A stretch of DNA of 64,000 bases, from contig CAVXYF010000002.1 of the NCBI GenBank assembly GCA_963765835.1, forward strand, positions 32,401 to 96,400, read 5' to 3'. The position numbers and the translations under genes were made by a program. This DNA comes from an uncultured Acidobacteriota bacterium. GTDB lineage: Bacteria > Acidobacteriota > Thermoanaerobaculia > UBA5066 > Gp7-AA6. Of the stretch, positions 21,433 to 35,901 are shown piece by piece; the first letter of the stretch is position 1; each line of letters begins with the position of its first letter. Below the pieces are notes generated by a model. The model did no database searches. It was given only the letters and a program-made list of their open reading frames with translations, and had not been told where the DNA came from.

Positions 21433-22123
21433 CTAGTCCGTCTCGAAGACCTTGTAGTACACCGCGCCCCACGAAATGATCCACGTGTCGCGGAACGGCC
21501 GGTAGTGCGAGCCGGCAGAGTCGTAGATGGCGCGCACCGGAACGCTCGCGAACCGGTGGACGTGCCGCGCCGCCTTCAAGAGAACCTCCGTCTCGATCAG
21601 ATATCCGCGCGAAGAGAGCGACAGCCGGCGCAGCAGGGGCGCGGCGACCACGCGGTAGCCGGACTGCCCGTCCTCGACCTCGTGTCCGGTCATGCGCGTC
21701 AGGATGCGGCTCCCGATTTCGTTCGTGCGGAAGCGGACCGCCGGGATGTGCTCCCTCCCGTTGACGCGCGAGCCGATAACGAAGTCGTCGCCGGACCGCG
21801 CGGCGTCGAGCAGTCGGGGGAGATCGTCCGGATCGTGCTGGCCATCCGCGTCGACGAAGGCGACGTGACTCGCGTCCCCGGCGAGAACCGTCTCGAGGCC
21901 GGCCCGCAGCGCGCTCCCCTTGCCGGCGTTCACCGGAAGCCGGACGACCTCCGCGCCCGCCCGCTTCGCCTCCGCCGAGGTCCCGTCGGTGGACCCGTCG
22001 TCGACGACCACGACTCGCGGCACGTGCCTCCGCAGGCCGCGAACCACCGCACCGATGGTGGCCTCCGCCTGAAATGCGGGGACGAGCGCAACCGGATGGA
22101 AGTCGGATTCCACGTGGGGATCG
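21433..22123 (-). CDS. Family-2 glycosyltransferase (polyprenyl-phosphate sugar transferase-like: DPM1/ArnC/GtrB type, soluble domain only)
   Basis: VVVDDGSTDGT...FVDADGQHDP...QSGYR GT2 motifs. A GTG start at 22123 is used, because the upstream part of the ORF-track entry overlaps the nuo promoter region on the other strand. Confidence 0.75.
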
Positions 22124-22157
22124 TAGCCCGAGCATCCCGTTGACTCTCCCTCCGCGC

Positions 22158-22175
22158 TTGTGAAAAAGTTCACAA
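22158..22175 (+). promoter_or_regulatory. Rex operator (TTGTGAA-N4-TTCACAA), ~50 bp upstream of nuoA, in the divergent intergenic region with a TTGACT -35-like hexamer at 22139
   Basis: Exact palindrome TTGTGAAAAAGTTCACAA. The rex gene lies at the 3' end of the same operon. Confidence 0.75.
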
Positions 22176-22227
22176 CCGCTCGGCGCGCCCCGTTGCGCCG
22201 TTGGAAAGCCGGAATCGCGAGGTGCGG

Positions 22228-22581
22228 ATGGAAGAAAGTTATCTCCCGATCCTCATCCTGATGCTCTTCGCGATCGGAATCGCCGGCGCGATGATCCTCG
22301 TTTCCGCGGTGCTCGGCCCGCGTCTGCGCACGCGCCGGAAGCTCGACACCTACGAGAGCGGAATGCCGCTCCTGGACGCGTCTCACAAACGGATCTCCAT
22401 CCAGTTCTTCCTGATCGCGATGGTCTTCATCCTCTTCGACGTCGAGATCGCGTTCCTCTACCCCTGGGCGCTGGTGTTTCGCGAGGGAGGCATGCCCCTC
22501 TTCTACGAAATGGTGGCCTTCCTCGCGGTCCTCGCCGTGGGCTACGCCTACCTCTGGAAGAACAGGGCGTTCGACTGGTGA
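22228..22581 (+). CDS. nuoA: NADH-quinone oxidoreductase subunit A
   Basis: Three transmembrane helices, with the YESG and FDVE..FLYPWA motifs. Confidence 0.85.
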   Translation: MEESYLPILILMLFAIGIAGAMILVSAVLGPRLRTRRKLDTYESGMPLLDASHKRISIQFFLIAMVFILFDVEIAFLYPWALVFREGGMPLFYEMVAFLAVLAVGYAYLWKNRAFDW

Positions 22582-23084
22582 CCCACGTCCGTTACACGCT
22601 CGAGTCCGGGGGAGCACCGGCGAAGTTTCCCCCGAGGCGCGCCAGCGGATCGAGCGGATCCTGGCCCGCTACCCCACGAAGCAGGCGGCGCTCCTGCCCG
22701 TCCTGTGGGTCGCGCAGGAGACCTGGGGCTGGATTTCCCGGGAAGCGGCCGAGGAAGTCGCTCGGATCCTGGAACTCCCCCCGCGCACGTTTCGGGGTTC
22801 TCACCTTCTACACGATGTACAACCTGCGGCCCGTCGGCCGGAACCTGCTCCAGTTCTGCACGTCGATCTCCTGCCACATCGCGGGCGCCGGCCGACTGCT
22901 CGATCACTGCCGGAACCGTCTCGGGATCGACCTCGGTCAGACCACCGCGGACGGCAGCTTCACGATGGTCGAGGTCGAGTGCATCGCGGGCTGCGACCGC
23001 GCGCCGTCGATGATGGTCAACGACACCTACCACGAGCCGATGGACGCGGCGCGGCTGGATGCCCTGCTGGACGGGTTGAAGTGA
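22578..23084 (+). pseudogene. nuoE: NADH-quinone oxidoreductase subunit E (24-kDa, [2Fe-2S]), interrupted by frameshifts at homopolymer runs
   Basis: The C-terminal half (CTSISCHIAGAG...VECIAGCDRAP) is in the ORF frame. The N-terminal half (ARQRIERILARYPTKQAALLPVLWVAQETWGWIS) lies in another frame. Removing one C from CCCCCC at 22774-22779 restores LELPRARFGVLTFYTMY. A second shift near the GGGGG run at ~22608 is probable. Confidence 0.75.
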
Positions 23085-24397
23085 AGTCGGAGCAGGTTCT
23101 TCTCGCGCGGGTCGGCCGGGAGCACTCGGAGGCGATCGACACGTACGTCGCGGACGGCGGGTACGAGGCTCTCCGGAAAGTCCTCGGCGGCGCGTGGACT
23201 CCGGAAGCCGTCACGGAGGAGGTCAAGAAGTCGGGGCTTCGCGGCCGCGGCGGCGCGGGTTTCCCGACCGGCGTGAAGTGGGGCTTCGTCCCCAAGGACA
23301 CGAAGGGGAAGCCGGTCTACCTCCTCTGCAACGCGGACGAGTCGGAGCCCGGGACCTTCAAGGACCGGCTGCTGATGGAGAAGGACCCCCACCAGATGCT
23401 GGAGGGCCAGATCATCTCGGCGTACGCGCTGAAGTGCCGCAGCTCGTACATCTACATCCGCGGCGAGTTCTACGAGGGAGCCCGGATCCTGCAGCGCGCG
23501 ATCGACGAGGCGTACCGGGAGGGCTTCCTCGGGGAGAACATCCTCGGGTCCGGGTTCTCGCACGACATGACCGTCCACCGCGGCGCCGGCGCCTACATCT
23601 GCGGCGAGGAGACCGGTCTGATCGAGAGCCTGGAGGGCAAACGCGGCCAGCCTCGGATCAAGCCGCCCTTCCCCGCCGTGTTCGGGGTCTTCGGCGCGCC
23701 CACGATCGTCAACAACGTCGAGACGCTGTGCTGCGTGACCCACGTGATGAAACGGGGCGCCGAGTGGTTCGCAAAGATCGGCCGAAACGAGAAGAACACG
23801 GGGCCGAAGCTCTACTGCCTGTCCGGTCACGTCAACCGGCCCGGCGTCTACGAGGCCCCGATGGGCCTTCAGATGAAGGAGCTCCTCTTCGGGGACGACT
23901 ACGGGCAGGGCATGAAGGACGGCCGTAAGGTCAAGGCGGTCATCCCGGGTGGAGCCTCCGCGGCAATGCTGACGGCGGAGGAAATCGAAGACTGTCCGCT
24001 GGACTTCGACGGCCTGGCCGCCAAGAAGTCGATGCTGGGGTCGGCCGCGATCATCGTCATGAACGAGGACACCTGCATCGTCGACGCCGCGACGAACCTG
24101 GCCAAGTTCTTCTCCCACGAGTCGTGCGGGCAGTGCACTCCCTGTCGGGAGGGAACTCCCTGGCTGCACCGGGTGCTCGCGCGCATCGAAGACGGGGAGG
24201 GCCGGAGCGAGGACATCGACCTCCTCGAGAAGATCTCCAACCAGATGGCCAACGGCATGACCATCTGCGTCTTCGCGGACGCCGCGATCGCGCCAGTGCT
24301 GTCGTCGATCGGGAAGTTCCGCGACGAGTACCGGTACCACGTCGAGAACAAACGCTGTCTCGTGGGGCCGCGCGCCGGGGCGCTGGCCACGGCATGA
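23081..24397 (+). CDS. nuoF: NADH-quinone oxidoreductase subunit F (51-kDa, FMN/NADH/[4Fe-4S])
   Basis: GRGGAGFPTG, GEETGLIESLEG, and the CGQCTPCREG cluster motif. A GTG start overlaps the nuoE stop. Confidence 0.9.
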   Translation: MKSEQVLLARVGREHSEAIDTYVADGGYEALRKVLGGAWTPEAVTEEVKKSGLRGRGGAGFPTGVKWGFVPKDTKGKPVYLLCNADESEPGTFKDRLLMEKDPHQMLEGQIISAYALKCRSSYIYIRGEFYEGARILQRAIDEAYREGFLGENILGSGFSHDMTVHRGAGAYICGEETGLIESLEGKRGQPRIKPPFPAVFGVFGAPTIVNNVETLCCVTHVMKRGAEWFAKIGRNEKNTGPKLYCLSGHVNRPGVYEAPMGLQMKELLFGDDYGQGMKDGRKVKAVIPGGASAAMLTAEEIEDCPLDFDGLAAKKSMLGSAAIIVMNEDTCIVDAATNLAKFFSHESCGQCTPCREGTPWLHRVLARIEDGEGRSEDIDLLEKISNQMANGMTICVFADAAIAPVLSSIGKFRDEYRYHVENKRCLVGPRAGALATA

Positions 24398-26046
24398 GCA
24401 CCCCGGCCCCGCCCGCGACCGAAAAGAAGACCGTCACCGTCGTCTTCGACGGTGTCCCGATCGAGGTGCCCCCCGGGATCAACCTGATCGAGGCTGCGAA
24501 GCTCGCGGGAATCGAGATCCCCCACTTCTGCTTCCACCCCCGGCTGTCGGTCGTCGGGCAGTGCCGGATGTGCCTCGTCGAGATCGAGGGCATTCCCAAG
24601 ATCCAGGCGGCGTGCACGACCCCGCTGAAGGAAGGTCTCGTCGTCAAGACGACCACGGAGAAGGTGCGCGACTCGCGGGCCGCGAACATGGAGTTCCTCC
24701 TCATCAACCACCCGCTCGATTGCCCGATCTGCGACCAGGCCGGCGAGTGCAAGCTGCAGGACAACGCGTTCGGCTACGGCGAGCAGCGGTCCCGGTACGA
24801 CGAGCGGAAGCGGCAGTACGCCGGCTACGACCGGACGATGATCGGACCGCACGTCGTCGCCGACATGACCCGCTGCATCCAGTGCACGCGGTGCATCCGC
24901 TTCTGCTCCGAGATCGCAGGCACCGGCGAGCTCACCTTCCTGGATCGCGGCGGGCGCACGCTCGTCTGGACCCACGACGGTAAGCCGCTCGCGAACGACT
25001 GGTCGGCGTGCGCAGCCGACGTTTGCCCGGTCGGCGCGCTCACGACCCGGGAGTTCCGGTTCCGGCGCCGCGTCTGGGACCTCGCAAAGACTCCCTCGGT
25101 CTGCCCGGGGTGCAACATCGGCTGCAACATCTCGATCGAGAACCGCGACAACGTGGTCTACCGGTTCCTGCCCCGGCTGAACCCGGACGTGAACGACTAC
25201 TGGCTCTGCGACTACGGCCGCTTTCTGTCGGAGAGCCTGAACGCCCGGGACGTGGCGAAGGCCACGGTCCGGAGCGCGACGGAGGTGCGGGACGTCATCG
25301 TGCCGGCGGCCGTCGGGCAGATCGCGTCCGTCATCCGGGAGACGATCGACGCGGACGGGCCGTCGGGGCTGTTCTTCCTCGGGTCGGCGGACCTCTCGAA
25401 CGAGGAGAACTTTCTCCTCCGGAAGATCTCGGACCACCTGGGGTGCGCCAACCGCGACGTCGTCGTCGACCGCTCCCGGGTTCGCCGGATGAAGTCGAAG
25501 ACCGAGTGGATCGAGGGAGACCACGCCGCCGCCAACTACGCCGGCGCCCGGGACATGGGCATGACGCCGGGACCCGGTGGGCACGGCCTCGCCGACGTCC
25601 TCGAGGGCCGGTGGAGTCCGGCGGTCGTGGTCGTCGCGGACGCGGCGTTCTCGGCGGCCGCGGACGACCCGGACTCGGTTGCCCTGCTCCGCAAGGCGAA
25701 ATTTCTCGCGGTCGCCGGGCGAACCTCCAACGCCTTGACCCGAGCGGCCGACGTCGTCCTCCCGGCGTCCTCGCTCGCCCAGAAGGAGGGTTCGTTCACG
25801 AACGTGCAGGGGCGCGTCCAGCGGTTCGACCGGGCCTTCCTGCCGCCGCCGCCGTCGCGGCCTCACTGGGAGTTGCTCCTGCTGCTGGCGGTGGCGCTCG
25901 GTTGGGGAGACCGCAACTGGACTCCGGCCGACCTGCGCGCCCAGATCCGCGCGGAGGTAGCGGGCTACGACCACATCACCGAAGAGGAGATGGCGGGCGG
26001 CGGCCTCCTGAAGAAGGGGCTGTTCGTCTCGACCGGCGCGCTGTGA
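24394..26046 (+). CDS. nuoG: NADH-quinone oxidoreductase subunit G (short form, ~550 aa)
   Basis: N-terminal 2Fe-2S and 4Fe-4S cysteine clusters (CRMCLVE, CPICDQAGEC, CIQCTRCIRFC, CPVGAL). ATGA overlap with nuoF. Confidence 0.9.
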   Translation: MSTPAPPATEKKTVTVVFDGVPIEVPPGINLIEAAKLAGIEIPHFCFHPRLSVVGQCRMCLVEIEGIPKIQAACTTPLKEGLVVKTTTEKVRDSRAANMEFLLINHPLDCPICDQAGECKLQDNAFGYGEQRSRYDERKRQYAGYDRTMIGPHVVADMTRCIQCTRCIRFCSEIAGTGELTFLDRGGRTLVWTHDGKPLANDWSACAADVCPVGALTTREFRFRRRVWDLAKTPSVCPGCNIGCNISIENRDNVVYRFLPRLNPDVNDYWLCDYGRFLSESLNARDVAKATVRSATEVRDVIVPAAVGQIASVIRETIDADGPSGLFFLGSADLSNEENFLLRKISDHLGCANRDVVVDRSRVRRMKSKTEWIEGDHAAANYAGARDMGMTPGPGGHGLADVLEGRWSPAVVVVADAAFSAAADDPDSVALLRKAKFLAVAGRTSNALTRAADVVLPASSLAQKEGSFTNVQGRVQRFDRAFLPPPPSRPHWELLLLLAVALGWGDRNWTPADLRAQIRAEVAGYDHITEEEMAGGGLLKKGLFVSTGAL

Positions 26047-27083
26047 GCGGCACAGACCTGGGGATCGCGGCCCTTCGCGTGCTCGCCCCGGTCCTGGCCA
26101 TCCTGATCGTTCTGCCGATGCTCCAGTGGGTGGAGCGCCGCGGAGCCGGCTTGATCCAGGACCGGCCGGGCCCCAACCGCGTCGGCCCGTTCGGCCTTCT
26201 CCAGCCGCTCGCCGACGTCGTCAAGTTCTTCATGAAGGAAGACCTGATCCCGTCGAACGCGGACCGTTTCCTCTACGTGCTCGCGCCGGGCCTCGCGGCG
26301 TTCGCGGCGATGACCACCTTCGCTGTCATCCCGTACGGGGCGACGCTGACCGCGGGCGGCCGGGTCATACCGCTGGTCGGCGCGGACATCTCGATCGGGA
26401 TCCTGTACCTGTTCGCGCTCACCTCGCTGTCGGTCTACGGGATCGTGCTCGCGGGCTGGTCTTCCAACAACAAATTCTCCCTGATGGGCGGCATCCGCTC
26501 GAGCGCTCAGATCATTTCCTACGAGCTCGCGATGACGACCGCCGCCGCCGGCGTCGTTCTTTCGGCCGGATCGTTCCGGCTGACGGAGGTCGTCGTCCAA
26601 CAGGGCGGGAGCTGGTTCGCGTTCCCCTTCCACGGATGGAACGTCGTTCCGCAATTCCTGGGGTTCGTCGTCTTCTTCGTCTCCGCGTTCGCGGAGACCA
26701 ACCGCCTTCCCTTCGACCTCCCGGAAGCCGAGGCGGAGCTCGTCGCCGGATACCACACCGAGTATTCCGCCATGAAGTTCGCGATGTTCTACATGGCCGA
26801 GTACATCAACGTCATCGTGGCCTCGGCGCTCACGGTCACGCTCTACTTCGGGGGCTGGACGCTGCCCGGTTTTCACCCGACCGGGATCGGCGGCGTCCTC
26901 CTCTCGGTCCTGGTCTTCGCGGTCAAGACCGTAGCCGTCGTGTGGGTCTTCATGTGGGTGCGGTGGACTCTGCCGCGCTTCCGGTACGACCAGCTCATGC
27001 GGCTCGGCTGGAAAGCGCTCCTGCCGCTCGCGCTCGCGAACCTCTTCTGGGCCGCGGCGCTCGTTCTCTGGAAGGTCCTGTGA
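26043..27083 (+). CDS. nuoH: NADH-quinone oxidoreductase subunit H
   Basis: Multi-transmembrane protein with the conserved FAETNRLPFDLPEAE.ELVAGY.TEYS motif; GTGA overlap with nuoG. Confidence 0.9.
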   Translation: MSGTDLGIAALRVLAPVLAILIVLPMLQWVERRGAGLIQDRPGPNRVGPFGLLQPLADVVKFFMKEDLIPSNADRFLYVLAPGLAAFAAMTTFAVIPYGATLTAGGRVIPLVGADISIGILYLFALTSLSVYGIVLAGWSSNNKFSLMGGIRSSAQIISYELAMTTAAAGVVLSAGSFRLTEVVVQQGGSWFAFPFHGWNVVPQFLGFVVFFVSAFAETNRLPFDLPEAEAELVAGYHTEYSAMKFAMFYMAEYINVIVASALTVTLYFGGWTLPGFHPTGIGGVLLSVLVFAVKTVAVVWVFMWVRWTLPRFRYDQLMRLGWKALLPLALANLFWAAALVLWKVL

Positions 27084-27589
27084 CGGTCCGGCTCGCGTTC
27101 GACGTCGCCGCGGGGCTCGCAATCGTCTTCGCCTGCGCCATGGTGGTACACCGCCACCCGGTCAAGAGCGTTCTCGCGCTGGTCGTCTCGTTCTTCGCCC
27201 TCGCGGTCACGTTCGTGCTCCTTTCGGCGCCGCTGATCGCGGCCGTCCAGGTCATCGTCTACGCGGGCGCCATCCTCGTCCTCTTTCTCTTCGTGCTGAT
27301 GCTCTTAAACGTGCCCGCCGAGGTCCGACAGACCCCGGGCCGGCCGATCCACCACACGCTTTCGGCCGGAGCGATCGTGGCCTTCGCGGCGGCTTTGCTG
27401 GCGGCGTTCCGCTCCTACGGCTCGACGTCCGCGACTCCCTCCGCGGCGCTTTCGGACCCCTCCGACCTGGCTCCTCTCGCCCGGGTTCTGTTCTCGGATC
27501 ACCTCCTCTCGTTCGAGGCCCTGTCGATCCTGCTCCTGGCGGCGCTCGTGGGGGCGTTCGCTCTGGCGCGGCGGGAGGGAAGCCCGTGA
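27081..27589 (+). CDS. nuoJ: NADH-quinone oxidoreductase subunit J
   Basis: Small five-transmembrane-helix subunit sitting directly after nuoH, with no nuoI between them. Confidence 0.8.
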
Positions 27590-27900
27590 CGCCCAACGGA
27601 ATTCCGCTGGGCGACATCCTGCTCGCCTCCGGAGCGCTCTTCTCGATCGGGCTCGCGGGCGCGCTGCTGCGCCGGAACGCCATCTCGATCTTCCTCGCCA
27701 TCGAGCTGATGATGAACGCGGCGAACCTGGCGATCCTCGGCTATGCCGCGGCGCTCAACAGCCTCGAGGGGCAGATCGTCGTCTTCTTCGTGATCGCGAT
27801 CGCCGCCGCCGAGGCCGCGGTGGGGCTCGCCATCTTCGTCGCCCTCTTCCGGCACACCGAAACGATCGACGTCAACAAGATCAACCTGCTGAAGTGGTGA
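27586..27900 (+). CDS. nuoK: NADH-quinone oxidoreductase subunit K
   Basis: 104 aa with three transmembrane helices; the ...AAAEAAVGLAI.. motif. Confidence 0.9.
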   Translation: MTPNGIPLGDILLASGALFSIGLAGALLRRNAISIFLAIELMMNAANLAILGYAAALNSLEGQIVVFFVIAIAAAEAAVGLAIFVALFRHTETIDVNKINLLKW

Positions 27901-27901
27901 C

Positions 27902-29836
27902 ATGACGGTTGCCCTCTGGGTCGTCGCGGCGCTCCCGCTCGCCGGCTTCCTGCTGTGCCTTCTGCTGGGGCCCCGGCTCGGGAAGTCGTTCGTCTCGGCG
28001 GTCGGCGCCGGGTCCGTGGGCCTGGCGACGGTCGCCGCCTGGTCCCGACTCGTCCCCTACCTGGCGGGAGACGGCGGAACGGTCGTCGAGAAGGTGGCCC
28101 CGTGGATTGCCGCGGGCGACTTCTCCGTGGACCTCTCCCTGCGTCTCGACCCGCTGTCGGCCCTGATGGTCTCGTTCGTCACGTTCGTCGGTTTCCTCAT
28201 CCACGTCTACTCGATCGGCTACATGAAGCACGACGAGACCGACGCCGGTTACGCGCGCTACTTCGCCTACCTCAACCTGTTCCTTTTCGCGATGCTCGTC
28301 CTCGTGCTCGCGAACAACTTCCTCCTCATGTTCGTGGGGTGGGAGGGTGTGGGCCTCTGCTCCTACCTGCTCATCGGCTACTACTACGAGAGGGAGTACG
28401 CGGCCGACGCCGGAAAGAAGGCGTTCATCGTCAACCGGATCGGCGACTTCGGGTTTCTCCTCGGGATGTTCGGCGTCTTCTCGCTCTTCGGCACGCTCGA
28501 CTTCGATGCCGTCTTCACGAGCGCCGCCGCGGATCCCGGGCGGTTCGCGCCGGGCTTGACCCTCGTCTGCCTCCTCCTCTTCGTGGGGGCGATGGGCAAG
28601 AGCGCCCAGTTCCCGCTCCACGTCTGGCTTCCGGACGCGATGGCTGGACCGACCCCCGTCTCCGCGCTCATCCACGCCGCGACCATGGTGACCGCGGGTG
28701 TCTACATGGTGACACGCTGCAACGTCCTCTTCCGCCTCGCTCCCGACGCAATGTTCGTCGTCGCGGTCGTGGGAGGGTTGACCGCCATCTTCGCCGCAGT
28801 GATCGCGATCGCCCAGAACGACATCAAGAAGGTCCTCGCCTACTCGACCGTGTCCCAACTCGGGTACATGTTCATGGCCTGCGGGGTCGGGGCGTATGTC
28901 GCCGGGATGTTCCACGTCCTCACGCACGCCTTCTTCAAGGCCTGCCTGTTCCTCGGTTCGGGGGCCGTCATCCACGCCCTGGGGGGCGAGCAGGACATGC
29001 GGCGCATGGGTGGTCTCGCGCGCCGGCTCCCCGTGACCTATCGCACGTTCGTGGTCGCGACCCTCGCGCTCGCCGGCATTCCGCCGCTCGCCGGGTTCTT
29101 CTCCAAGGACGCCATCCTGACCGGGGTGTTCGCCGCGCACCACACGGTCCTCTTCGGAATCGGTCTCCTCACCGCCGGCCTCACGGCTTTTTATATGTTC
29201 CGGCTCGTCTCCCTGACCTTTGCCGGAGAGTTTCGAGGGACGCCGGAAGAGGCGGCTCACATCCACGAGGCGCCTCCGTCGATGACCGTCCCGCTCGTCG
29301 TCCTCGCCTTTCTCTCGGCGGTCGCCGGATTTCTGGGAATGCCCGAGGTCTTCGGGGAGCACGCCAACCGGATTGCCGCCTTTCTGCAACCGGTCTTTCC
29401 GAGGATCGGGCTCGCCTCCGCCGAGGCCCCCGAACACGCGCTTTCGGCAGTCACGGAGTGGGTCCTCATCGGCGCCTCGGTGGCCTTCGCCGTCGTCGGC
29501 ATCCTCGTCGCCTGGAACTGGTACGCGAGGAAGCGGGGCGAGCCGGCGGAGCGCGTGGCCGCGTCGTTCCCGGCTCTCTATCGGCTGGTCGTGGAGAAGT
29601 TCCGGATCGACGACCTCTATGACGCCCTCTTTGTGAAGCCCTTCGCGTGGCTCGCGCGAATGCTTTGGAAGGTAGTCGACGTTCTCATCATCGACGGCGT
29701 ACTGAACGCCGGCGCCTTCATCGTCGAGCTCATCGGCGACGTCCTGCGTTTCCTGCAGACGGGAAACGTGCGCAACTACGCCCTGACGTTCCTGATCGGC
29801 ATCGTGGCGCTCCTCCTGATCGTGCTGGCCGGATAG
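27902..29836 (+). CDS. nuoL: NADH-quinone oxidoreductase subunit L
   Basis: 644-aa antiporter-like subunit, with the long C-terminal amphipathic-helix region. Confidence 0.9.
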   Translation: MTVALWVVAALPLAGFLLCLLLGPRLGKSFVSAVGAGSVGLATVAAWSRLVPYLAGDGGTVVEKVAPWIAAGDFSVDLSLRLDPLSALMVSFVTFVGFLIHVYSIGYMKHDETDAGYARYFAYLNLFLFAMLVLVLANNFLLMFVGWEGVGLCSYLLIGYYYEREYAADAGKKAFIVNRIGDFGFLLGMFGVFSLFGTLDFDAVFTSAAADPGRFAPGLTLVCLLLFVGAMGKSAQFPLHVWLPDAMAGPTPVSALIHAATMVTAGVYMVTRCNVLFRLAPDAMFVVAVVGGLTAIFAAVIAIAQNDIKKVLAYSTVSQLGYMFMACGVGAYVAGMFHVLTHAFFKACLFLGSGAVIHALGGEQDMRRMGGLARRLPVTYRTFVVATLALAGIPPLAGFFSKDAILTGVFAAHHTVLFGIGLLTAGLTAFYMFRLVSLTFAGEFRGTPEEAAHIHEAPPSMTVPLVVLAFLSAVAGFLGMPEVFGEHANRIAAFLQPVFPRIGLASAEAPEHALSAVTEWVLIGASVAFAVVGILVAWNWYARKRGEPAERVAASFPALYRLVVEKFRIDDLYDALFVKPFAWLARMLWKVVDVLIIDGVLNAGAFIVELIGDVLRFLQTGNVRNYALTFLIGIVALLLIVLAG

Positions 29837-29839
29837 CGC

Positions 29840-31357
29840 ATGGCAGAGCTCCTCGAGTCCCGCCTGCTGACCGTGCTGGTCTTTCTGCCGTCGGCGGCGG
29901 CGGTCCTCCTTCTCTTTTTTCCGGAGAGCCGCAGCCGGGAGGCGAAGATCTTCGCGATCGCCGCGTCCGTCCTGGAGCTCGGCCTCGCGCTCCCCCTCTG
30001 GTCCCGTTTCGACGTCAGCTCCGGCGCCTTCCAGTTCGTCGAGCGAACCGACTGGATCCCGGCGCTCGGGATCTCCTACACGCTGGGGATCGACGGCATC
30101 TCCCTGTTGCTGATCCTGTTGACCGTCGTCCTCACGCCCGTCTCTCTTCTTTTCTCGCTCACGCACGTCCAGAAGAGCGCCCGGGCGTTCTCGATCGCGT
30201 TCCTGGTGCTCGAGACCGGGATCAACGGCACACTTGCGGCCCTCGACCTCGCGCTCTTCTACGTCTTCTGGGAAGTGATGCTCGTCCCGATGTACTTCAT
30301 CATCGGGATCTGGGGTGGGGCTCGGCGGATCTACGCCGCCATGAAGTTCTTCCTGTTCACGATGGCGGGGAGCCTCCTCATGTTCCTCGCGATCCTGTAC
30401 CTCGCGGCGCGGCACCGGGCGGAGACGGGCGAGTGGTCGTTCCTGCTCGCCGACCTCGCCACGCTGACCTACCCGTCGATGGCCATCCAAACCGTTCTCT
30501 TCCTCGCATTCGCGCTCGCTTTCGCGATCAAGGTGCCGGTCTTCCCTCTCCACACCTGGCTGCCCGACGCGCACACGGAGGCCCCGACGGCCGGCTCGAT
30601 CATCCTGGCCGGCGTCCTGCTCAAGCTGGGGGTGTACGGATACCTGCGGTTCGCGCTGCCGCTCTTCCCCGACTCCTCGATCCGATTCGCGCCGTGGCTC
30701 GGGGTGCTCGGAGTCATCGGGGTCATTTACGGAGCCCTCGTGGCCTTCGCGCAGAAGGACATGAAGCGCCTCGTGGCCTACTCCTCGGTTTCTCACCTCG
30801 GGCTGGTCGTGATCGGAATCGGCGCGTTCACGAGCACCGCCCTGGCCGGGTCGGTTCTCCAAATGATCAACCACGGTCTGTCGACCGGCGCCCTGTTCCT
30901 CCTCGTTGGCGTGCTCTACGAACGAACCCACACGCGCGAGATCGCCGACTACGGCGGAATCGCGGGCGTCGTGCCGGTGACGACCGGGCTCTTCCTCGTC
31001 GCAACCTTCTCGTCGATCGGCCTTCCCGGGTTGAACGGGTTCGTCGGCGAGTTCCTCGTTCTCCTGGGAACCTGGACGTCCGAACACCGGTGGTGGGCGG
31101 TCGCCGCCGCGACCGGCGTCGTTCTGTCCGCGATCTACATGCTCTCCCTGGTGCAGCGAGTCTTCTGGAACCCGCTGACGAGAGACGAGAACCGCCGGCT
31201 TCGGGATATCCGGGCGAGCGAGCTCGTCGCGGCCGGGACGCTGATCGTGCTCATGGTCTGGATCGGCGTCCGGCCGAACGACGTCCTCGATCGAATCCGG
31301 CCGTCCGTGGAGGAGCTGCGGCGTTCCGTGGCGGCGCACGTGGGGGCCCGGCCTTGA
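29840..31357 (+). CDS. nuoM: NADH-quinone oxidoreductase subunit M
   Basis: 505-aa antiporter-like subunit. Confidence 0.9.
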   Translation: MAELLESRLLTVLVFLPSAAAVLLLFFPESRSREAKIFAIAASVLELGLALPLWSRFDVSSGAFQFVERTDWIPALGISYTLGIDGISLLLILLTVVLTPVSLLFSLTHVQKSARAFSIAFLVLETGINGTLAALDLALFYVFWEVMLVPMYFIIGIWGGARRIYAAMKFFLFTMAGSLLMFLAILYLAARHRAETGEWSFLLADLATLTYPSMAIQTVLFLAFALAFAIKVPVFPLHTWLPDAHTEAPTAGSIILAGVLLKLGVYGYLRFALPLFPDSSIRFAPWLGVLGVIGVIYGALVAFAQKDMKRLVAYSSVSHLGLVVIGIGAFTSTALAGSVLQMINHGLSTGALFLLVGVLYERTHTREIADYGGIAGVVPVTTGLFLVATFSSIGLPGLNGFVGEFLVLLGTWTSEHRWWAVAAATGVVLSAIYMLSLVQRVFWNPLTRDENRRLRDIRASELVAAGTLIVLMVWIGVRPNDVLDRIRPSVEELRRSVAAHVGARP

Positions 31358-31374
31358 CCCCCAGCTTTCTCGCG

Positions 31375-32808
31375 ATGGGACCCAACGACGTGGCGGCGGC
31401 CGCGCCCGAAATCTGCCTCGCCGCGGCCGGCTGCCTCCTGGTGCTCCTGGACGCGTTCGCCCCCTCGGCCCGGCGGTGGTTCGCAACGCTCTCGCTCGCC
31501 GCCCTCGCCCTCTCGATCTGGTTCCTCCTGGAGGCACCGTACGGCCTTTCCTTCGGCGGGCGGTACGAGACCTCCGACCTGACGACCGCGGCCGGACTCT
31601 TCGCAGCGGCAACGGCCGCCGTCGCCATCCTCGTCGCAAAGCCGTACCTCCGCCGCACCGGCGAGGAGAAGGGCGAGTTTTACGCCCTCCTGCTGTGGGG
31701 CCACCTCGGGGTCTCTCTCATGACGCGGGGGCTCGACCTGCTCATCGTGTTCATCGGGCTGGAGACCCTGTCGCTCTCCTTCTACGTTTTGGCGGCATTT
31801 TTCCGGACCATCCACGCTTCCTCGGAGGCCGGCCTGAAGTACTTCCTGACCGGCGCCTTCGGCTCGGCGTTCACGCTCTACGGCATCGCACTTCTCTTCG
31901 GCAAAGCCGGCACGGTCCGGATCGCCGCCCTCGCGCGGCCGGACCTCGGCGCCGATCCCCTGGTTCTCTTCGGCCTCCTCCTCCTGCTGGTCGGTTTCGG
32001 GTTCAAGATGTCGCTCGCTCCCTTCCACGCGTGGGCCCCCGACGTCTACCAGGGAATGCCCACACCCGCGGTCGCCTACCTCTCCGTGGCGCCGAAGGGC
32101 GCGAGCGTGATCGTGCTCTATCGCGTCTTGACGGCGGCCTTCGAGGGCGGGATGCCGGACCGTTTCCGGACGGCGATCGCCGTTCTCGCGATTCTGTCCA
32201 TGAGCCTGGGCAACGTCGTGGCCCTGGCCCAGCGCGACATCAAACGACTTCTCGCGTATTCGGGAATCGCGCACATGGGCTACGTGACGATTGCGCTCGC
32301 GATATTCGGCCGCGATGCCCTCGCCGCCGTGATCGTCTACTTCTTCGCCTACGTGGTCTCGAACGCCGGTGCGTTCGCGGCGGTCGCGGCTCTCTATGGC
32401 GACGAGACGAAGCCGCATCCGGTCGGTCTGCTCGCCGGGGCGGGCCATCGGTCGCCCTTTGCGGCGGCCGTGCTGGCCCTGTGCATGTTCTCGCTCGCCG
32501 GAATCCCCGCGACCGCCGGCTTCATCGGAAAGTTCTTCGTCTTCAAGTCCGCCATCGACGGGGGCTTCTACGCCCTCGCGATCATCGGCGTCGTCAACAG
32601 TCTCATTTCCATCGGTTACTACCTGAAGGTCGTGTACATCCTCTACATGCGCGAACCGGTCGAGGAGAGCGCTCCCCCGCGCCTCGCGATCGCGGATCGC
32701 CTCGTGCTCGGGCTCTGCGGGGCCGGGATCCTGGCGCTTGGCATCTTTCCGGCGGGCGTCTGGAACTTTGCGCGCAACGCCGCCGCGAGCCTTTCCCTCG
32801 GACCATGA
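31375..32808 (+). CDS. nuoN: NADH-quinone oxidoreductase subunit N
   Basis: Antiporter-like subunit. The start is either ATG at 31375 or TTG at 31354; the ORF track over-extends it upstream in the same frame. Confidence 0.85.
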   Translation: MGPNDVAAAAPEICLAAAGCLLVLLDAFAPSARRWFATLSLAALALSIWFLLEAPYGLSFGGRYETSDLTTAAGLFAAATAAVAILVAKPYLRRTGEEKGEFYALLLWGHLGVSLMTRGLDLLIVFIGLETLSLSFYVLAAFFRTIHASSEAGLKYFLTGAFGSAFTLYGIALLFGKAGTVRIAALARPDLGADPLVLFGLLLLLVGFGFKMSLAPFHAWAPDVYQGMPTPAVAYLSVAPKGASVIVLYRVLTAAFEGGMPDRFRTAIAVLAILSMSLGNVVALAQRDIKRLLAYSGIAHMGYVTIALAIFGRDALAAVIVYFFAYVVSNAGAFAAVAALYGDETKPHPVGLLAGAGHRSPFAAAVLALCMFSLAGIPATAGFIGKFFVFKSAIDGGFYALAIIGVVNSLISIGYYLKVVYILYMREPVEESAPPRLAIADRLVLGLCGAGILALGIFPAGVWNFARNAAASLSLGP

Positions 32809-33605
32809 GCCGCACGACGCCGCCCAGGACGTCCCGCGAGTCGAAGGAGCCAGTATCGGAGGCGACGGCTTCCCGTCTCTCGGTCTACGTTCGATGCCTC
32901 GCCGAGCTCGAGGCAGAGGGCCGGGAGCACATTTCGTCGCAGGAGCTGGCGCGCCGCTTCCACCTGAACTCTCCCCAGATCCGCAAGGACCTCGCGACTT
33001 TCGGCGAGTTCGGCATCCGCGGCGTCGGTTACTCGATCGGCGCTCTCAAGCGGCACCTCGTCTCGATCCTCGGCCTCGACCAGGTCCGCCGGGTCGCAAT
33101 CGTCGGGGCCGGCCACCTGGGCTCGGCTCTGGCGGACTACGGCGGCTTCCGCTCCGGCGGCTTCCGCATCGTCGCCCTGTTCGACAACGACCGCTCCCGG
33201 ATCGGCTCGAAGAGCCGGGCGGGCGTGCCGGTGCACGACGTCCGCCGGATGGCGGAGGTAGTCGCTCGGGAAGGGATCGAGATTGCCGTGATCGCCGTCC
33301 CGGCGTCCGCTGCGGCGGAGGTCGCCCGGCAGTGCTGGGAAGCTGGCCTGAAAGCAGTCCTGAACTTCGCGCCGGTGCGCCTCGACCCTCCCTCCGACGC
33401 CTTTCTGAAGAACGTCGATCTCAAGATCAACCTCGAAACGCTCTCCTTCTACATCGCGCGTCCCGGAGGGCGACCTGCAAAGGTCAAAGGAGAAACGAAT
33501 GCCGTCGAAGCCGAAGCCGTTTTCCCCGCAAGGCCGCGCCGTCCCCGCGCCGAAGCCCGTCACCCCGGAGCGCGGCTCCCACCGGCCCAAGCCGATCGCG
33601 GCTGA
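32805..33605 (+). CDS. rex: Redox-sensing transcriptional repressor Rex
   Basis: Winged-helix N-terminus (ISSQELARRFHLNSPQIRKDLATFGEFGIRGVGY) and a Rossmann fold (VAIVGAGHLGSAL). ATGA overlap with nuoN. The ORF continues ~55 aa past the usual Rex C-terminus and overlaps gdh. Confidence 0.75.
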   Translation: MSRTTPPRTSRESKEPVSEATASRLSVYVRCLAELEAEGREHISSQELARRFHLNSPQIRKDLATFGEFGIRGVGYSIGALKRHLVSILGLDQVRRVAIVGAGHLGSALADYGGFRSGGFRIVALFDNDRSRIGSKSRAGVPVHDVRRMAEVVAREGIEIAVIAVPASAAAEVARQCWEAGLKAVLNFAPVRLDPPSDAFLKNVDLKINLETLSFYIARPGGRPAKVKGETNAVEAEAVFPARPRRPRAEARHPGARLPPAQADRG

Positions 33606-34845
33606 GAACCTCAACCCGTACGACTTCGCGCTCCTTCAGTTCGATCGGGCGGCGGACAAGCTCGGGCTGGACTCGGGGGTGCGCGCGGTCCTGTCCACGC
33701 CGAAGCGGCAGCTCATCGTTTCCGTGCCCATCAAGATGGACGACGGCTCGATCAGCGCGTTCCAGGGATACCGGGTCCAGCACTCGATCACCCGCGGGCC
33801 CTCCAAGGGGGGGATCCGGTATCACCCCGGCGTCACCCTCGACGAAGTCAAGGCTCTCGCGATGTGGATGACGTGGAAGTGCGCGGTCGTCAACATCCCG
33901 TTCGGCGGCGCGAAGGGCGGAATCACCGTCGATCCCAAGAAGCTGTCAGACGGTGAGAACGAGCGGATGACGCGCCGCTACACGTCCGAGATCTCGATTC
34001 TCCTGGGGCACGACCGAGACATCCCGGCTCCCGACGTCTACACCACGCCCCAGACGATGGCCTGGATCATGGACACGTTCTCGATGACGAAGGGATATTC
34101 GACCCTTGGCGTCGTGACGGGGAAGCCGCTCGCCGTCGGCGGCTCCGCAGGCCGCAACGAGGCGACGGCGGAGGGATGCTTCGTCGCCATCGAAGAGGCC
34201 GCGAACAGGCTCTCCCTCCCGCTTCACGGGACGACGGCGGCGGTCCAGGGCTTCGGCAACGCGGGCGCGGCGGTCGCGCGGTTTCTCGACGAGGCAGGGG
34301 TCAGGGTGGTCGCGATCTCCGATTCGAAGGGGGGCATCTACGACAAGCGCGGACTGGAGCTGAACGCGGTGTTTACGGCCAAGGAGAAGAAGGGATCCGT
34401 CACCGCGGCGCGCGGGGAGAAGATCACCAACGAAGAGATCCTGGAGCTGCCCGTCGACATCCTCGTCCCCGCGGCGCTGGAGGGCGTCATCACCCGGAAG
34501 AACGCGCCCCGGATCAAGGCGCAGATCATCGCGGAGGCGGCGAACGGGCCCACGACTCCGGACGCCGACGACATCCTCCGAAGCAAGGGCACGGTGGTCA
34601 TTCCGGACATCCTCGCCAACGCCGGCGGGGTCACCGTCTCGTACTTCGAGTGGGTCCAGGACCTGTACTCGTTCTTCTGGGAGCCGGACGTCGTCCGCAA
34701 TCACCTGGACCGCACGATCCGGCGCGCTTACCAGGAGGTCGACGACACCGCGCGGCGCTACAACACGGACCTCCGCACCGGTGCTCTCATTCTCGGAGTG
34801 GGCCGCGTCGAGGAGGCCACCCGGATCCGCGGCCTCTTCCCGTAG
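33499..34845 (+). CDS. gdhA: NAD(P)-specific glutamate dehydrogenase
   Basis: GPSKGGIRYHP and KCAVVNIPFGGAKGG motifs, with a C-terminal Rossmann fold. The start is uncertain. Confidence 0.85.
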   Translation: MPSKPKPFSPQGRAVPAPKPVTPERGSHRPKPIAAENLNPYDFALLQFDRAADKLGLDSGVRAVLSTPKRQLIVSVPIKMDDGSISAFQGYRVQHSITRGPSKGGIRYHPGVTLDEVKALAMWMTWKCAVVNIPFGGAKGGITVDPKKLSDGENERMTRRYTSEISILLGHDRDIPAPDVYTTPQTMAWIMDTFSMTKGYSTLGVVTGKPLAVGGSAGRNEATAEGCFVAIEEAANRLSLPLHGTTAAVQGFGNAGAAVARFLDEAGVRVVAISDSKGGIYDKRGLELNAVFTAKEKKGSVTAARGEKITNEEILELPVDILVPAALEGVITRKNAPRIKAQIIAEAANGPTTPDADDILRSKGTVVIPDILANAGGVTVSYFEWVQDLYSFFWEPDVVRNHLDRTIRRAYQEVDDTARRYNTDLRTGALILGVGRVEEATRIRGLFP

Positions 34846-34858
34846 ACCGCGACAGGGC

Positions 34859-35450
34859 TCAGAGGCGGATCAGAACGGCCCGGACGGGGGACGCGTCGAG
34901 CTCGTCCAGGCGGAGGGGCAGCGCGACCAGCTGATACTCCCCCTCTTCGACTGCCTCGAGGGCGAGGTGTTCGAGCAAAGCGATCCCTTGCGAGAGGAGC
35001 GCCCGGTGCGCCGGCAGGTCCTCGGCGTCGGGCGGATCGATGGAGGGCGCGTCGGTTCCGACGAGGATGGCGCCGTGCTCCGCCAGCCGCAGGGCGGCGA
35101 GCGGCGACAGGTAGGCGCGGCCCCGGCTGCGAAACAGGACGCGGGGAACGCGAAGACTCGACGCGGGGAGCTCCTCCGGTCCGAGCTCTCCCCTTCCGGA
35201 AACTTCGACGACCCGCGCCGGCCCCAGGTAGGGATGGAGCGGCACCGCGCCGATGTTCGCCGCGCCCGCGAGAACGTGGCTGGGCGCGTCCGCGTGGGTC
35301 CCGAGATGCGCGCTCATCGTGAAGGCCGTGGATTCGAAGGGCCAGCCCTCCGCGAGGCTCGACGTGCTCCGAAATGAGAACGCCGTGTCGCCGGGCCACG
35401 GGACGGTGCCCTCGTCGATACGACGGGAGATATCGAAGATCTTCAGCGCA
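34859..35450 (-). CDS. Cyclase-family protein (arylformamidase / kynurenine-formamidase-like)
   Basis: KIFDISRRIDEGTVPWPGDTAFSF...HLGTHADAPSHV matches the cyclase fold. The start is unresolved: there is no canonical start in frame, and the upstream part of the ORF-track entry overlaps the next gene. Confidence 0.5.
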
Positions 35451-35901
35451 TTCGCCGCAGCGTTTTCGTCTCCGCGTATCTTTCCGCGACGTGCGGGTCG
35501 TACCCGCGGTGGCGCGGATTCAGGGGGAGGTCGCGGTACTCGGCGTCGCACCGGTAGCAGATCGTAACCGCACCGATTCGCCGGGCGACGATCCAGTCGA
35601 CCACGACCGACGCGAGGAGGACCGGCGTGAACCAGATCCAGCCGAACTTCCAGCCCGCAAAGAGGGCGACGCCCAGGGAGATGGCCATCAGCAGGCAGCC
35701 GAGGCGCTGGTCGAAGTCCTTCTGGACGAAGAAGGCGCGGTTGCCGCAGAACGCGCACCTCTCGATCGGCCCCGCCGACACGACGCCCTCTCGCCGCAAC
35801 GCATAGGGAGCCCCGCACTTCGCGCAAGTGAACTCTCCCCCTTCGGAGGGGCCGTGCTCCCGCGACTCGAGACAGCTCGGACAGTAGCGGCGGGCGCGCA
35901 C
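35443..35901 (-). CDS. Zinc-ribbon membrane protein of unknown function
   Basis: CPSC...CAKC and CAFC pairs, followed by two transmembrane helices. Confidence 0.45.
   Translation of the reverse strand: MRARRYCPSCLESREHGPSEGGEFTCAKCGAPYALRREGVVSAGPIERCAFCGNRAFFVQKDFDQRLGCLLMAISLGVALFAGWKFGWIWFTPVLLASVVVDWIVARRIGAVTICYRCDAEYRDLPLNPRHRGYDPHVAERYAETKTLRRMR

Follow-up and report, generated by a model that had tools for sequence, protein, structure and literature searches.

A 64,000-nucleotide stretch of contig CAVXYF010000002.1, from an uncultured Acidobacteriota bacterium of the class Thermoanaerobaculia (referred to here as the window and numbered from its first letter), carries an operon, nuoAEFGHJKLMN-rex(-gdh), in which genes for complex I subunits are followed by the gene for the NADH-sensing repressor Rex. 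Our comparison of this operon with its relatives indicates that a palindrome in front of nuoA is very probably a functional Rex operator embedded in the core promoter. Since the encoded repressor is recognizable as Rex, the palindrome is conserved, and its integrity co-varies with the presence of rex, we consider both the assignment to Rex and the resulting autoregulatory loop to be well supported.

The palindrome upstream of nuoA and the Rex protein

The putative operator, TTGTGAAAAAGTTCACAA (22158–22175, assigned to neither strand), is an exact 18-bp inverted repeat of the form TTGTGAA-N4-TTCACAA, with AAAG as spacer, and agrees with the Rex consensus at every defined position. It is located in the 114-nt intergenic region between a divergent glycosyltransferase gene on the minus strand and nuoA on the plus strand. 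The nuoA ATG (22228), which is preceded by GAGGTG, begins after a gap of 52 nt, in keeping with a preliminary description of this DNA that had reported an exact Rex palindrome about 50 bp 5′ of nuoA. Within the window, TTGTGAAAAAGTTCACAA is the sole match to the consensus TTGTGAANNNNTTCACAA with two or fewer mismatches, while shuffled sequences predict 0.01 matches. Permitting three mismatches added just two sites, at 29631 (in nuoL) and 39807, both of which are in coding sequence and were dismissed as chance. A relaxed scan for the core GTGAA-N4-TTCAC also gave extra sites, all within coding sequence and at the level expected by chance.

Judged by its sequence, the 266-amino-acid product of rex (32805–33605, plus strand) is a bona fide Rex. 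The preliminary description had proposed looking for the winged-helix and Rossmann signature with hidden Markov models, and both domains are present: the winged helix (PF06971, 4.8e-18) spans residues 17–63 and is followed by the Rossmann domain (PF02629, 9.7e-17), within a core of residues 14–224. The protein also scores at or above the cut-offs of three NCBIfam Rex models (NF003995, 245.1 versus 126; NF003993, 230.8 versus 217; NF003992, 226 versus 226). Solved Rex structures from Thermotoga maritima (5zz5, 1e-48) and Thermus aquaticus (1xcb, 2.5e-43) match across the whole core, and with that of T. thermophilus (3ikt) included, the structurally characterized proteins align over their full length with values from 1e-48 to 4e-43. 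The features kept in common with them are the RKD of the recognition helix, the RGVGY wing, the GxGxxG motif, the equivalents of Ala94 and Tyr98, and the C-terminal swapped helix. In T. aquaticus Rex, Lys47 is part of the recognition helix and Ala94 and Tyr98 contact the nicotinamide and ribose (PMC8063818); these residues align with K61, A108, and Y112 of the window protein, all of which are invariant in its relatives. The GxGxxG motif occupies residues 101–106 (G101-A-G103-H-L-G106). Among the Rex relatives recovered by our protein search, all of which are close (at least 64% identity), QIRKDL, RGVGY, GxGxxG, FDxD, and the C-terminal swapped helix are invariant.

Compared with the characterized structures, the window protein has an additional C-terminal tail of 45 amino acids, rich in proline, arginine, and alanine, that extends beyond the core (residues 220–266, 33462–33605) and runs over the start of gdh. 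This tail is common only to four close protein clusters (P0001–P0004, 265 amino acids); other relatives end at about 221 amino acids, before gdh. We weighed the possibility that the tail is an artefact akin to the gaps in nuoE described below and disfavor it because the tail is present in P0001–P0004. As four independent protein clusters have it, the tail is probably real.

Conservation of the palindrome and co-variation with rex

To place the locus among its relatives, we carried out a NuoG-based scan of species-representative genomes, together with a scan of metagenomes, and mapped the operon proteins onto the resulting loci (numbered with the prefix L) by tblastn. The closest loci belong to metagenome-assembled genomes (MAGs) of Thermoanaerobaculia (Acidobacteriota), with L001 at 86% identity in the NuoG scan. 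The order nuoA-E-F-G-H-J-K-L-M-N-rex recurs in 19 further loci (14 from genomes and 5 from metagenomes), over which NuoG identity falls from 87% to 44%. A Rex-like box with its GTG...CAC core intact is present just 5′ of nuoA in every one of these rex-containing loci (19/19). In the window's clade the box is either the exact consensus or differs from it by one or two terminal mismatches; a second clade has TTGTGAAAAGTATCACGA or TTGTGAAAATTAGCACGA, a third has TTGTGACnnnnTTCACGA, and L009 has AAGTGAAATTTTTCACGC. A search of 604 kb of Thermoanaerobaculia loci gave 23 sites with two or fewer mismatches, every one of them at the nuoA promoter.

Loci that have lost rex behave differently. Five loci lack the gene despite containing sequence 3′ of nuoN (L006, L010, L087, L088, and L021), and in all five the CAC of the right arm is gone, with TTCGCCT, TTCGCAC, TCGCTCA, TCGCCCG, or TCCGCAC in its place. 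None of the five shows a change in TGTGAAAAAG, which is the left arm with the spacer, or in the TTGACT upstream. In four of them (L006, L010, L087, and L088) gdh follows nuoN directly, within 60–150 nt; gdh is found after rex only in the window's own clade (L001, L003, L004, L008, L081, and L089). In a neighbor-joining tree of NuoF, L010, L087, and L088 form one clade, sister to that of the window, together with L085 and L086, which are not counted among the five rex-less loci. L006 was left out of this tree because its NuoF hit is split; the sequence of its promoter and its junction of nuoN with gdh group it with the sister clade. L021 branches apart from them, among loci that contain rex. 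The sister clade and the separate position of L021 therefore point to two independent losses of rex.

The preliminary description had suggested conservation in orthologous promoters as a further check on the palindrome. Our comparison bears this out: at NuoG identities as low as 44%, Thermoanaerobaculia loci keep the palindrome, and its right arm is degraded in the loci without rex. In these alignments, constraint on the right arm is confined to loci with Rex. The rex-less sister clade can be viewed as a natural experiment in which the Rex-specific right arm is uncoupled from a promoter role of the left arm.

These observations bear on which protein binds the site. Rex and CRP motifs resemble each other, and TTGTGAAAAAGTTCACAA contains the CRP core TGTGA-N6-TCACA, as would be expected if a regulator of the CRP/FNR family bound the palindrome instead of Rex. 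However, the flanks that distinguish a Rex site, TTGTGAA and TTCACAA, are exact in the window, the site is linked to rex in the 19 further loci, loss of rex coincides exactly with decay of the right arm, and no CRP-family gene was tied to the locus. We consider binding by a CRP/FNR-family regulator in place of Rex to be very unlikely.

It could also be argued that the box is a core promoter element and nothing else, namely an A-rich extended −10 with an incidental right arm, or that it forms an RNA or DNA hairpin. That even the rex-less clade retains a perfect left arm and spacer would fit a promoter element, but the right arm is kept in every rex-containing locus, at NuoG identities of 44–87%, and is lost only without rex. 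The hairpin is disfavored because changes in the right arm (such as ATCACGA) are uncompensated in the left. Both forms of this explanation strike us as extremely improbable.

Beyond Thermoanaerobaculia, operons of Myxococcota and delta-type MAGs that have the same gene order without rex lack the box, and the operons of other phyla in our sample have neither rex nor box, with the sole exception of L109. This unrelated metagenome contig carries a canonical 14-gene nuoA–N operon with AAGTGAATCATTTCACAA 37 nt before nuoA (L109:4810-4840) and has no rex within 10 kb, which suggests that nuo is under the control of Rex in a further lineage.

Predicted promoter architecture and proposed mechanism

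How might Rex control this promoter? A putative −35 hexamer, TTGACT, is found at 22140–22145 on the plus strand and was identified by conservation: among the related loci, clades A, A′, and B all keep TTGAC(T/G/C) 11–12 nt 5′ of the box, and in the window the distance is 12 nt. The predicted −10 region would then coincide with TGTGAAAAAGT, which comprises the left arm and the spacer of the palindrome. Given a spacer of 17–18 nt, the −10 would fall on AAAAGT in the spacer of the box, with the TG of the left arm before it. The left arm survives in rex-less genomes and so has a role independent of Rex; the simplest such role is that of a component of the −10 region.

The distance from the box to nuoA varies. 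In the window, L001, L081, and L089, the leaders are 53–57 nt long and contain the Shine-Dalgarno sequence GAGGTG. In L002, L008, L084, L095, and clade B (for example, L012 and L019), the nuoA ATG lies merely 3–16 nt past the box, a distance that suggests very short leaders, or none if the −10 is inside the box.

Because the intergenic region is only 114 nt long, it is also possible that the box acts mainly, or in addition, on the divergent gene, which encodes a family-2 glycosyltransferase (GT2; 21433–22113, minus strand; PF00535). Its GTG start at 22113 faces the box from 44 nt away, and similar upstream sequence occurs in L001 and clade B. However, the upstream sequence differs in L003, L004, L008, and L009, although the position of the box with respect to nuoA is the same there. 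Since the upstream gene is not the same in several relatives, control of the glycosyltransferase cannot be the function that is conserved. Moreover, the TTGAC element points toward nuoA at a fixed 11–12 nt, and a cell-envelope enzyme has no obvious link to NADH balance. We therefore regard control of the glycosyltransferase as improbable. Such control is compatible with a Rex operator for nuo, to which it would possibly add without replacing it.

The mechanism we propose for the Rex operator is as follows. When the NADH/NAD+ ratio is low, a Rex dimer would occupy TTGTGAA-N4-TTCACAA over the predicted −10 region; since the site overlaps this region and lies 11–12 nt 3′ of the TTGAC −35 element, Rex binding would block RNA polymerase. 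Rising NADH would fill the Rossmann domains and close the dimer, whereupon Rex would leave the DNA and the operon would be transcribed. Transcription would supply the NADH-oxidizing N-module together with the membrane arm of complex I, which would lower NADH, and probably glutamate dehydrogenase (GDH) as well. Translation of rex, which is coupled to the nuo genes as the last of the series, would yield more Rex and restore repression. In this way, metabolic and genetic negative feedback would be combined. For the DNA binding of Rex, its response to NADH, the transcription start, and co-transcription, this model draws on analogy with Streptomyces.

Several points weigh against this interpretation. 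In one subgroup of rex-containing loci (L013, L014, L020, and L093), the right arm is weak (AGCACGA, three mismatches to the consensus). The co-variation between rex loss and operator decay comes from two loss events only. As a scan of 21900–22400 for the strict, E. coli-type sigma-70 consensus found neither promoter nor terminator, the −35 and −10 assignments, and with them the overlap of operator and −10, derive from conservation. In addition, an internal promoter may drive rex; a promoter scan of 32500–35600 gave chance-level matches only, inside gdh. Finally, the Q-module genes of complex I lie outside the Rex circuit, as described in the next section.

The regulator, the operator, the complex I target, and the autoregulation are all already known. 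In Streptomyces avermitilis, Rex binds the nuoA1 and rex promoters and repression is relieved by NADH, as determined by electrophoretic mobility shift assays, chromatin immunoprecipitation, and footprinting (PMC5355995). In S. coelicolor and S. avermitilis, the Rex regulon includes operators at nuoA1-N1, cydABCD, atp, and rex-hemACD. It resembles the system described here in the repressor family, the operator consensus TTGTGAANNNNTTCACAA, the complex I target, and, as predicted for the window, in the overlap with the core promoter and the autoregulation of Rex. It differs in that rex belongs to rex-hemACD, a distinct operon that has an operator of its own, and that nuo is a full 14-gene operon, whereas in the window one operator would serve one operon that holds nuo and rex (and probably gdh) and lacks nuoBCDI. 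The overlap also differs, involving the predicted −10 region in the window and the −35 region in Streptomyces.

What differs here is the Acidobacteriota lineage, the presence of sensor and target in one operon under one operator, and the absence of the Q-module genes from that operon. Our literature searches on Rex in Acidobacteria/Acidobacteriota gave nothing relevant. The operon extends Rex/NADH feedback on complex I to Thermoanaerobaculia, a class known almost solely from metagenomes, in a compact design in which a single operator would govern both the genes of an NADH-consuming enzyme and the gene for the sensor. Although the understanding of Rex itself is unchanged, the finding should help regulon annotation in Thermoanaerobaculia MAGs.

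Gene content of the operon and the missing Q-module genes

The operon contains ten nuo genes (A, E, F, G, H, J, K, L, M, and N), all on the plus strand and joined by 4-nt overlaps or separated by gaps of no more than about 17 nt. Searches with Pfam and NCBIfam models identified all members of both the N-module (nuoE, F, and G) and the membrane arm (nuoA, H, J, K, L, M, and N) in this set. The first gene, nuoA (22228–22581, 117 amino acids; PF00507, 1.9e-32), has a start that agrees with that of L001. It is followed by nuoE (22578–23084), nuoF (23081–24397, 438 amino acids; PF01512, 3.8e-49, and PF10589, 1.3e-30), and a short form of nuoG (24394–26046, 550 amino acids; PF22117, PF13510, PF10588, and PF00384), whose product scores 453.8 bits against TIGR01973, slightly below the cut-off of 470. 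Next come nuoH (26043–27083, 346 amino acids; PF00146, 4.3e-120), then nuoJ, directly after nuoH with no nuoI between them (27080–27589, 169 amino acids; PF00499, 1.8e-34), and nuoK (27586–27900, 104 amino acids; PF00420, 5.3e-28). The series ends with nuoL (27902–29836, 644 amino acids; NF005141, 772 bits versus a cut-off of 556), nuoM (29840–31357, 505 amino acids; TIGR01972, 608.7 bits versus 263.8), and nuoN (31375–32808, 477 amino acids; PF00361, 1.7e-68), which follows nuoM in all related loci.

The preliminary description had placed rex after nuoN, overlapping its stop, and the two genes do share the sequence ATGA, in which the rex ATG (32805–32807) overlaps the nuoN TGA (32806–32808). 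The gene for glutamate dehydrogenase, gdh (33499–34845, plus strand, 448 amino acids; PF00208 and PF02812), overlaps the rex tail by 107 nt, and its start, MPSKPKP, is kept in L001. A convergent cyclase gene lies 14 nt beyond gdh, which is probably the last gene of the nuo-rex transcription unit. By analogy with Streptomyces, co-transcription would extend across 10.6 kb.

The reading frame of nuoE is disturbed. Compared with L001, L089, and L081, it has three single-base gaps at homopolymer runs (22630, 22778, and 22793; columns 72, 219, and 234 of the alignment to these loci). Together the gaps restore the frame, leaving about 55 codons (roughly 22630–22795) out of frame with no stop codon. 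The open reading frame encodes 168 amino acids, PF01257 covers residues 73–167 only, the C-terminal half alone matches NuoE models, and the N-terminal NuoE motif is found in another frame. Since the gaps occur at homopolymers and are missing from the three relatives, they are probably errors, in a pattern more suggestive of faulty long-read assembly than of a pseudogene. The operator is unaffected by such errors, as it is identical in several relatives. In L006 (CAVPSG010000002.1), which is a long-read MAG, nuoF, K, L, and M are split in tblastn searches, an observation that fits frequent frameshift errors like those in nuoE of the window.

The genes of the Q-module, nuoB, C, D, and I, are absent, such that the operon is not a complete 14-subunit nuoA–N operon. 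Using the corresponding proteins of a canonical operon (L036) as tblastn queries, we found no match in the 64 kb window at E ≤ 0.01 and none in any of the Thermoanaerobaculia loci examined. These queries do recover the genes in the canonical operons of other loci. Within the operon, nuoA adjoins nuoE and nuoH adjoins nuoJ, leaving no space for nuoBCD or nuoI. Since nuoBCDI were not found and the operon has no space for them, we conclude that it encodes the N-module and membrane arm without the Q-module. This modifies the preliminary description, which had proposed a self-contained autoregulatory loop on complex I: the autoregulatory loop is well supported, but because nuoBCDI lie outside the operon and the window, the loop is not self-contained for complex I.

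Though unusual, the arrangement has precedent, as the '2M' complex I of Chloroflexi likewise has nuoBCDI encoded apart from the remaining nuo genes (PMC7117926). The two share the detachment of the Q-module genes and differ in that the window operon has one nuoM and has nuoEFG between nuoA and nuoH. All of the Thermoanaerobaculia loci share the order lacking the Q-module genes, and MAGs of Myxococcota and delta-type bacteria (for example, L034, L048, and L049) have it as well, there without rex.

One further possibility is that, in Thermoanaerobaculia, control by Rex is limited to the N-module (NADH input) and the proton-pumping arm, with NuoBCDI encoded and regulated elsewhere and perhaps also serving a second complex I-like enzyme. 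If so, the NADH sensor would select the electron-input module on a common Q-module rather than set the amount of complex I. We view this idea as unlikely.

Unusual arrangements around NuoG homologues are found in other loci, namely L059 (L059:9424-15794) as well as L043, L047, L061, L064, L068, L104, L110, L117, L123, L130, L132, L134, L137, L141, and L145. L059 has the order nuoB-G-I-C-D-E-F and lacks membrane subunits, and nuoB-nuoF-nuoG trios are present in many Binatia and delta-type MAGs.

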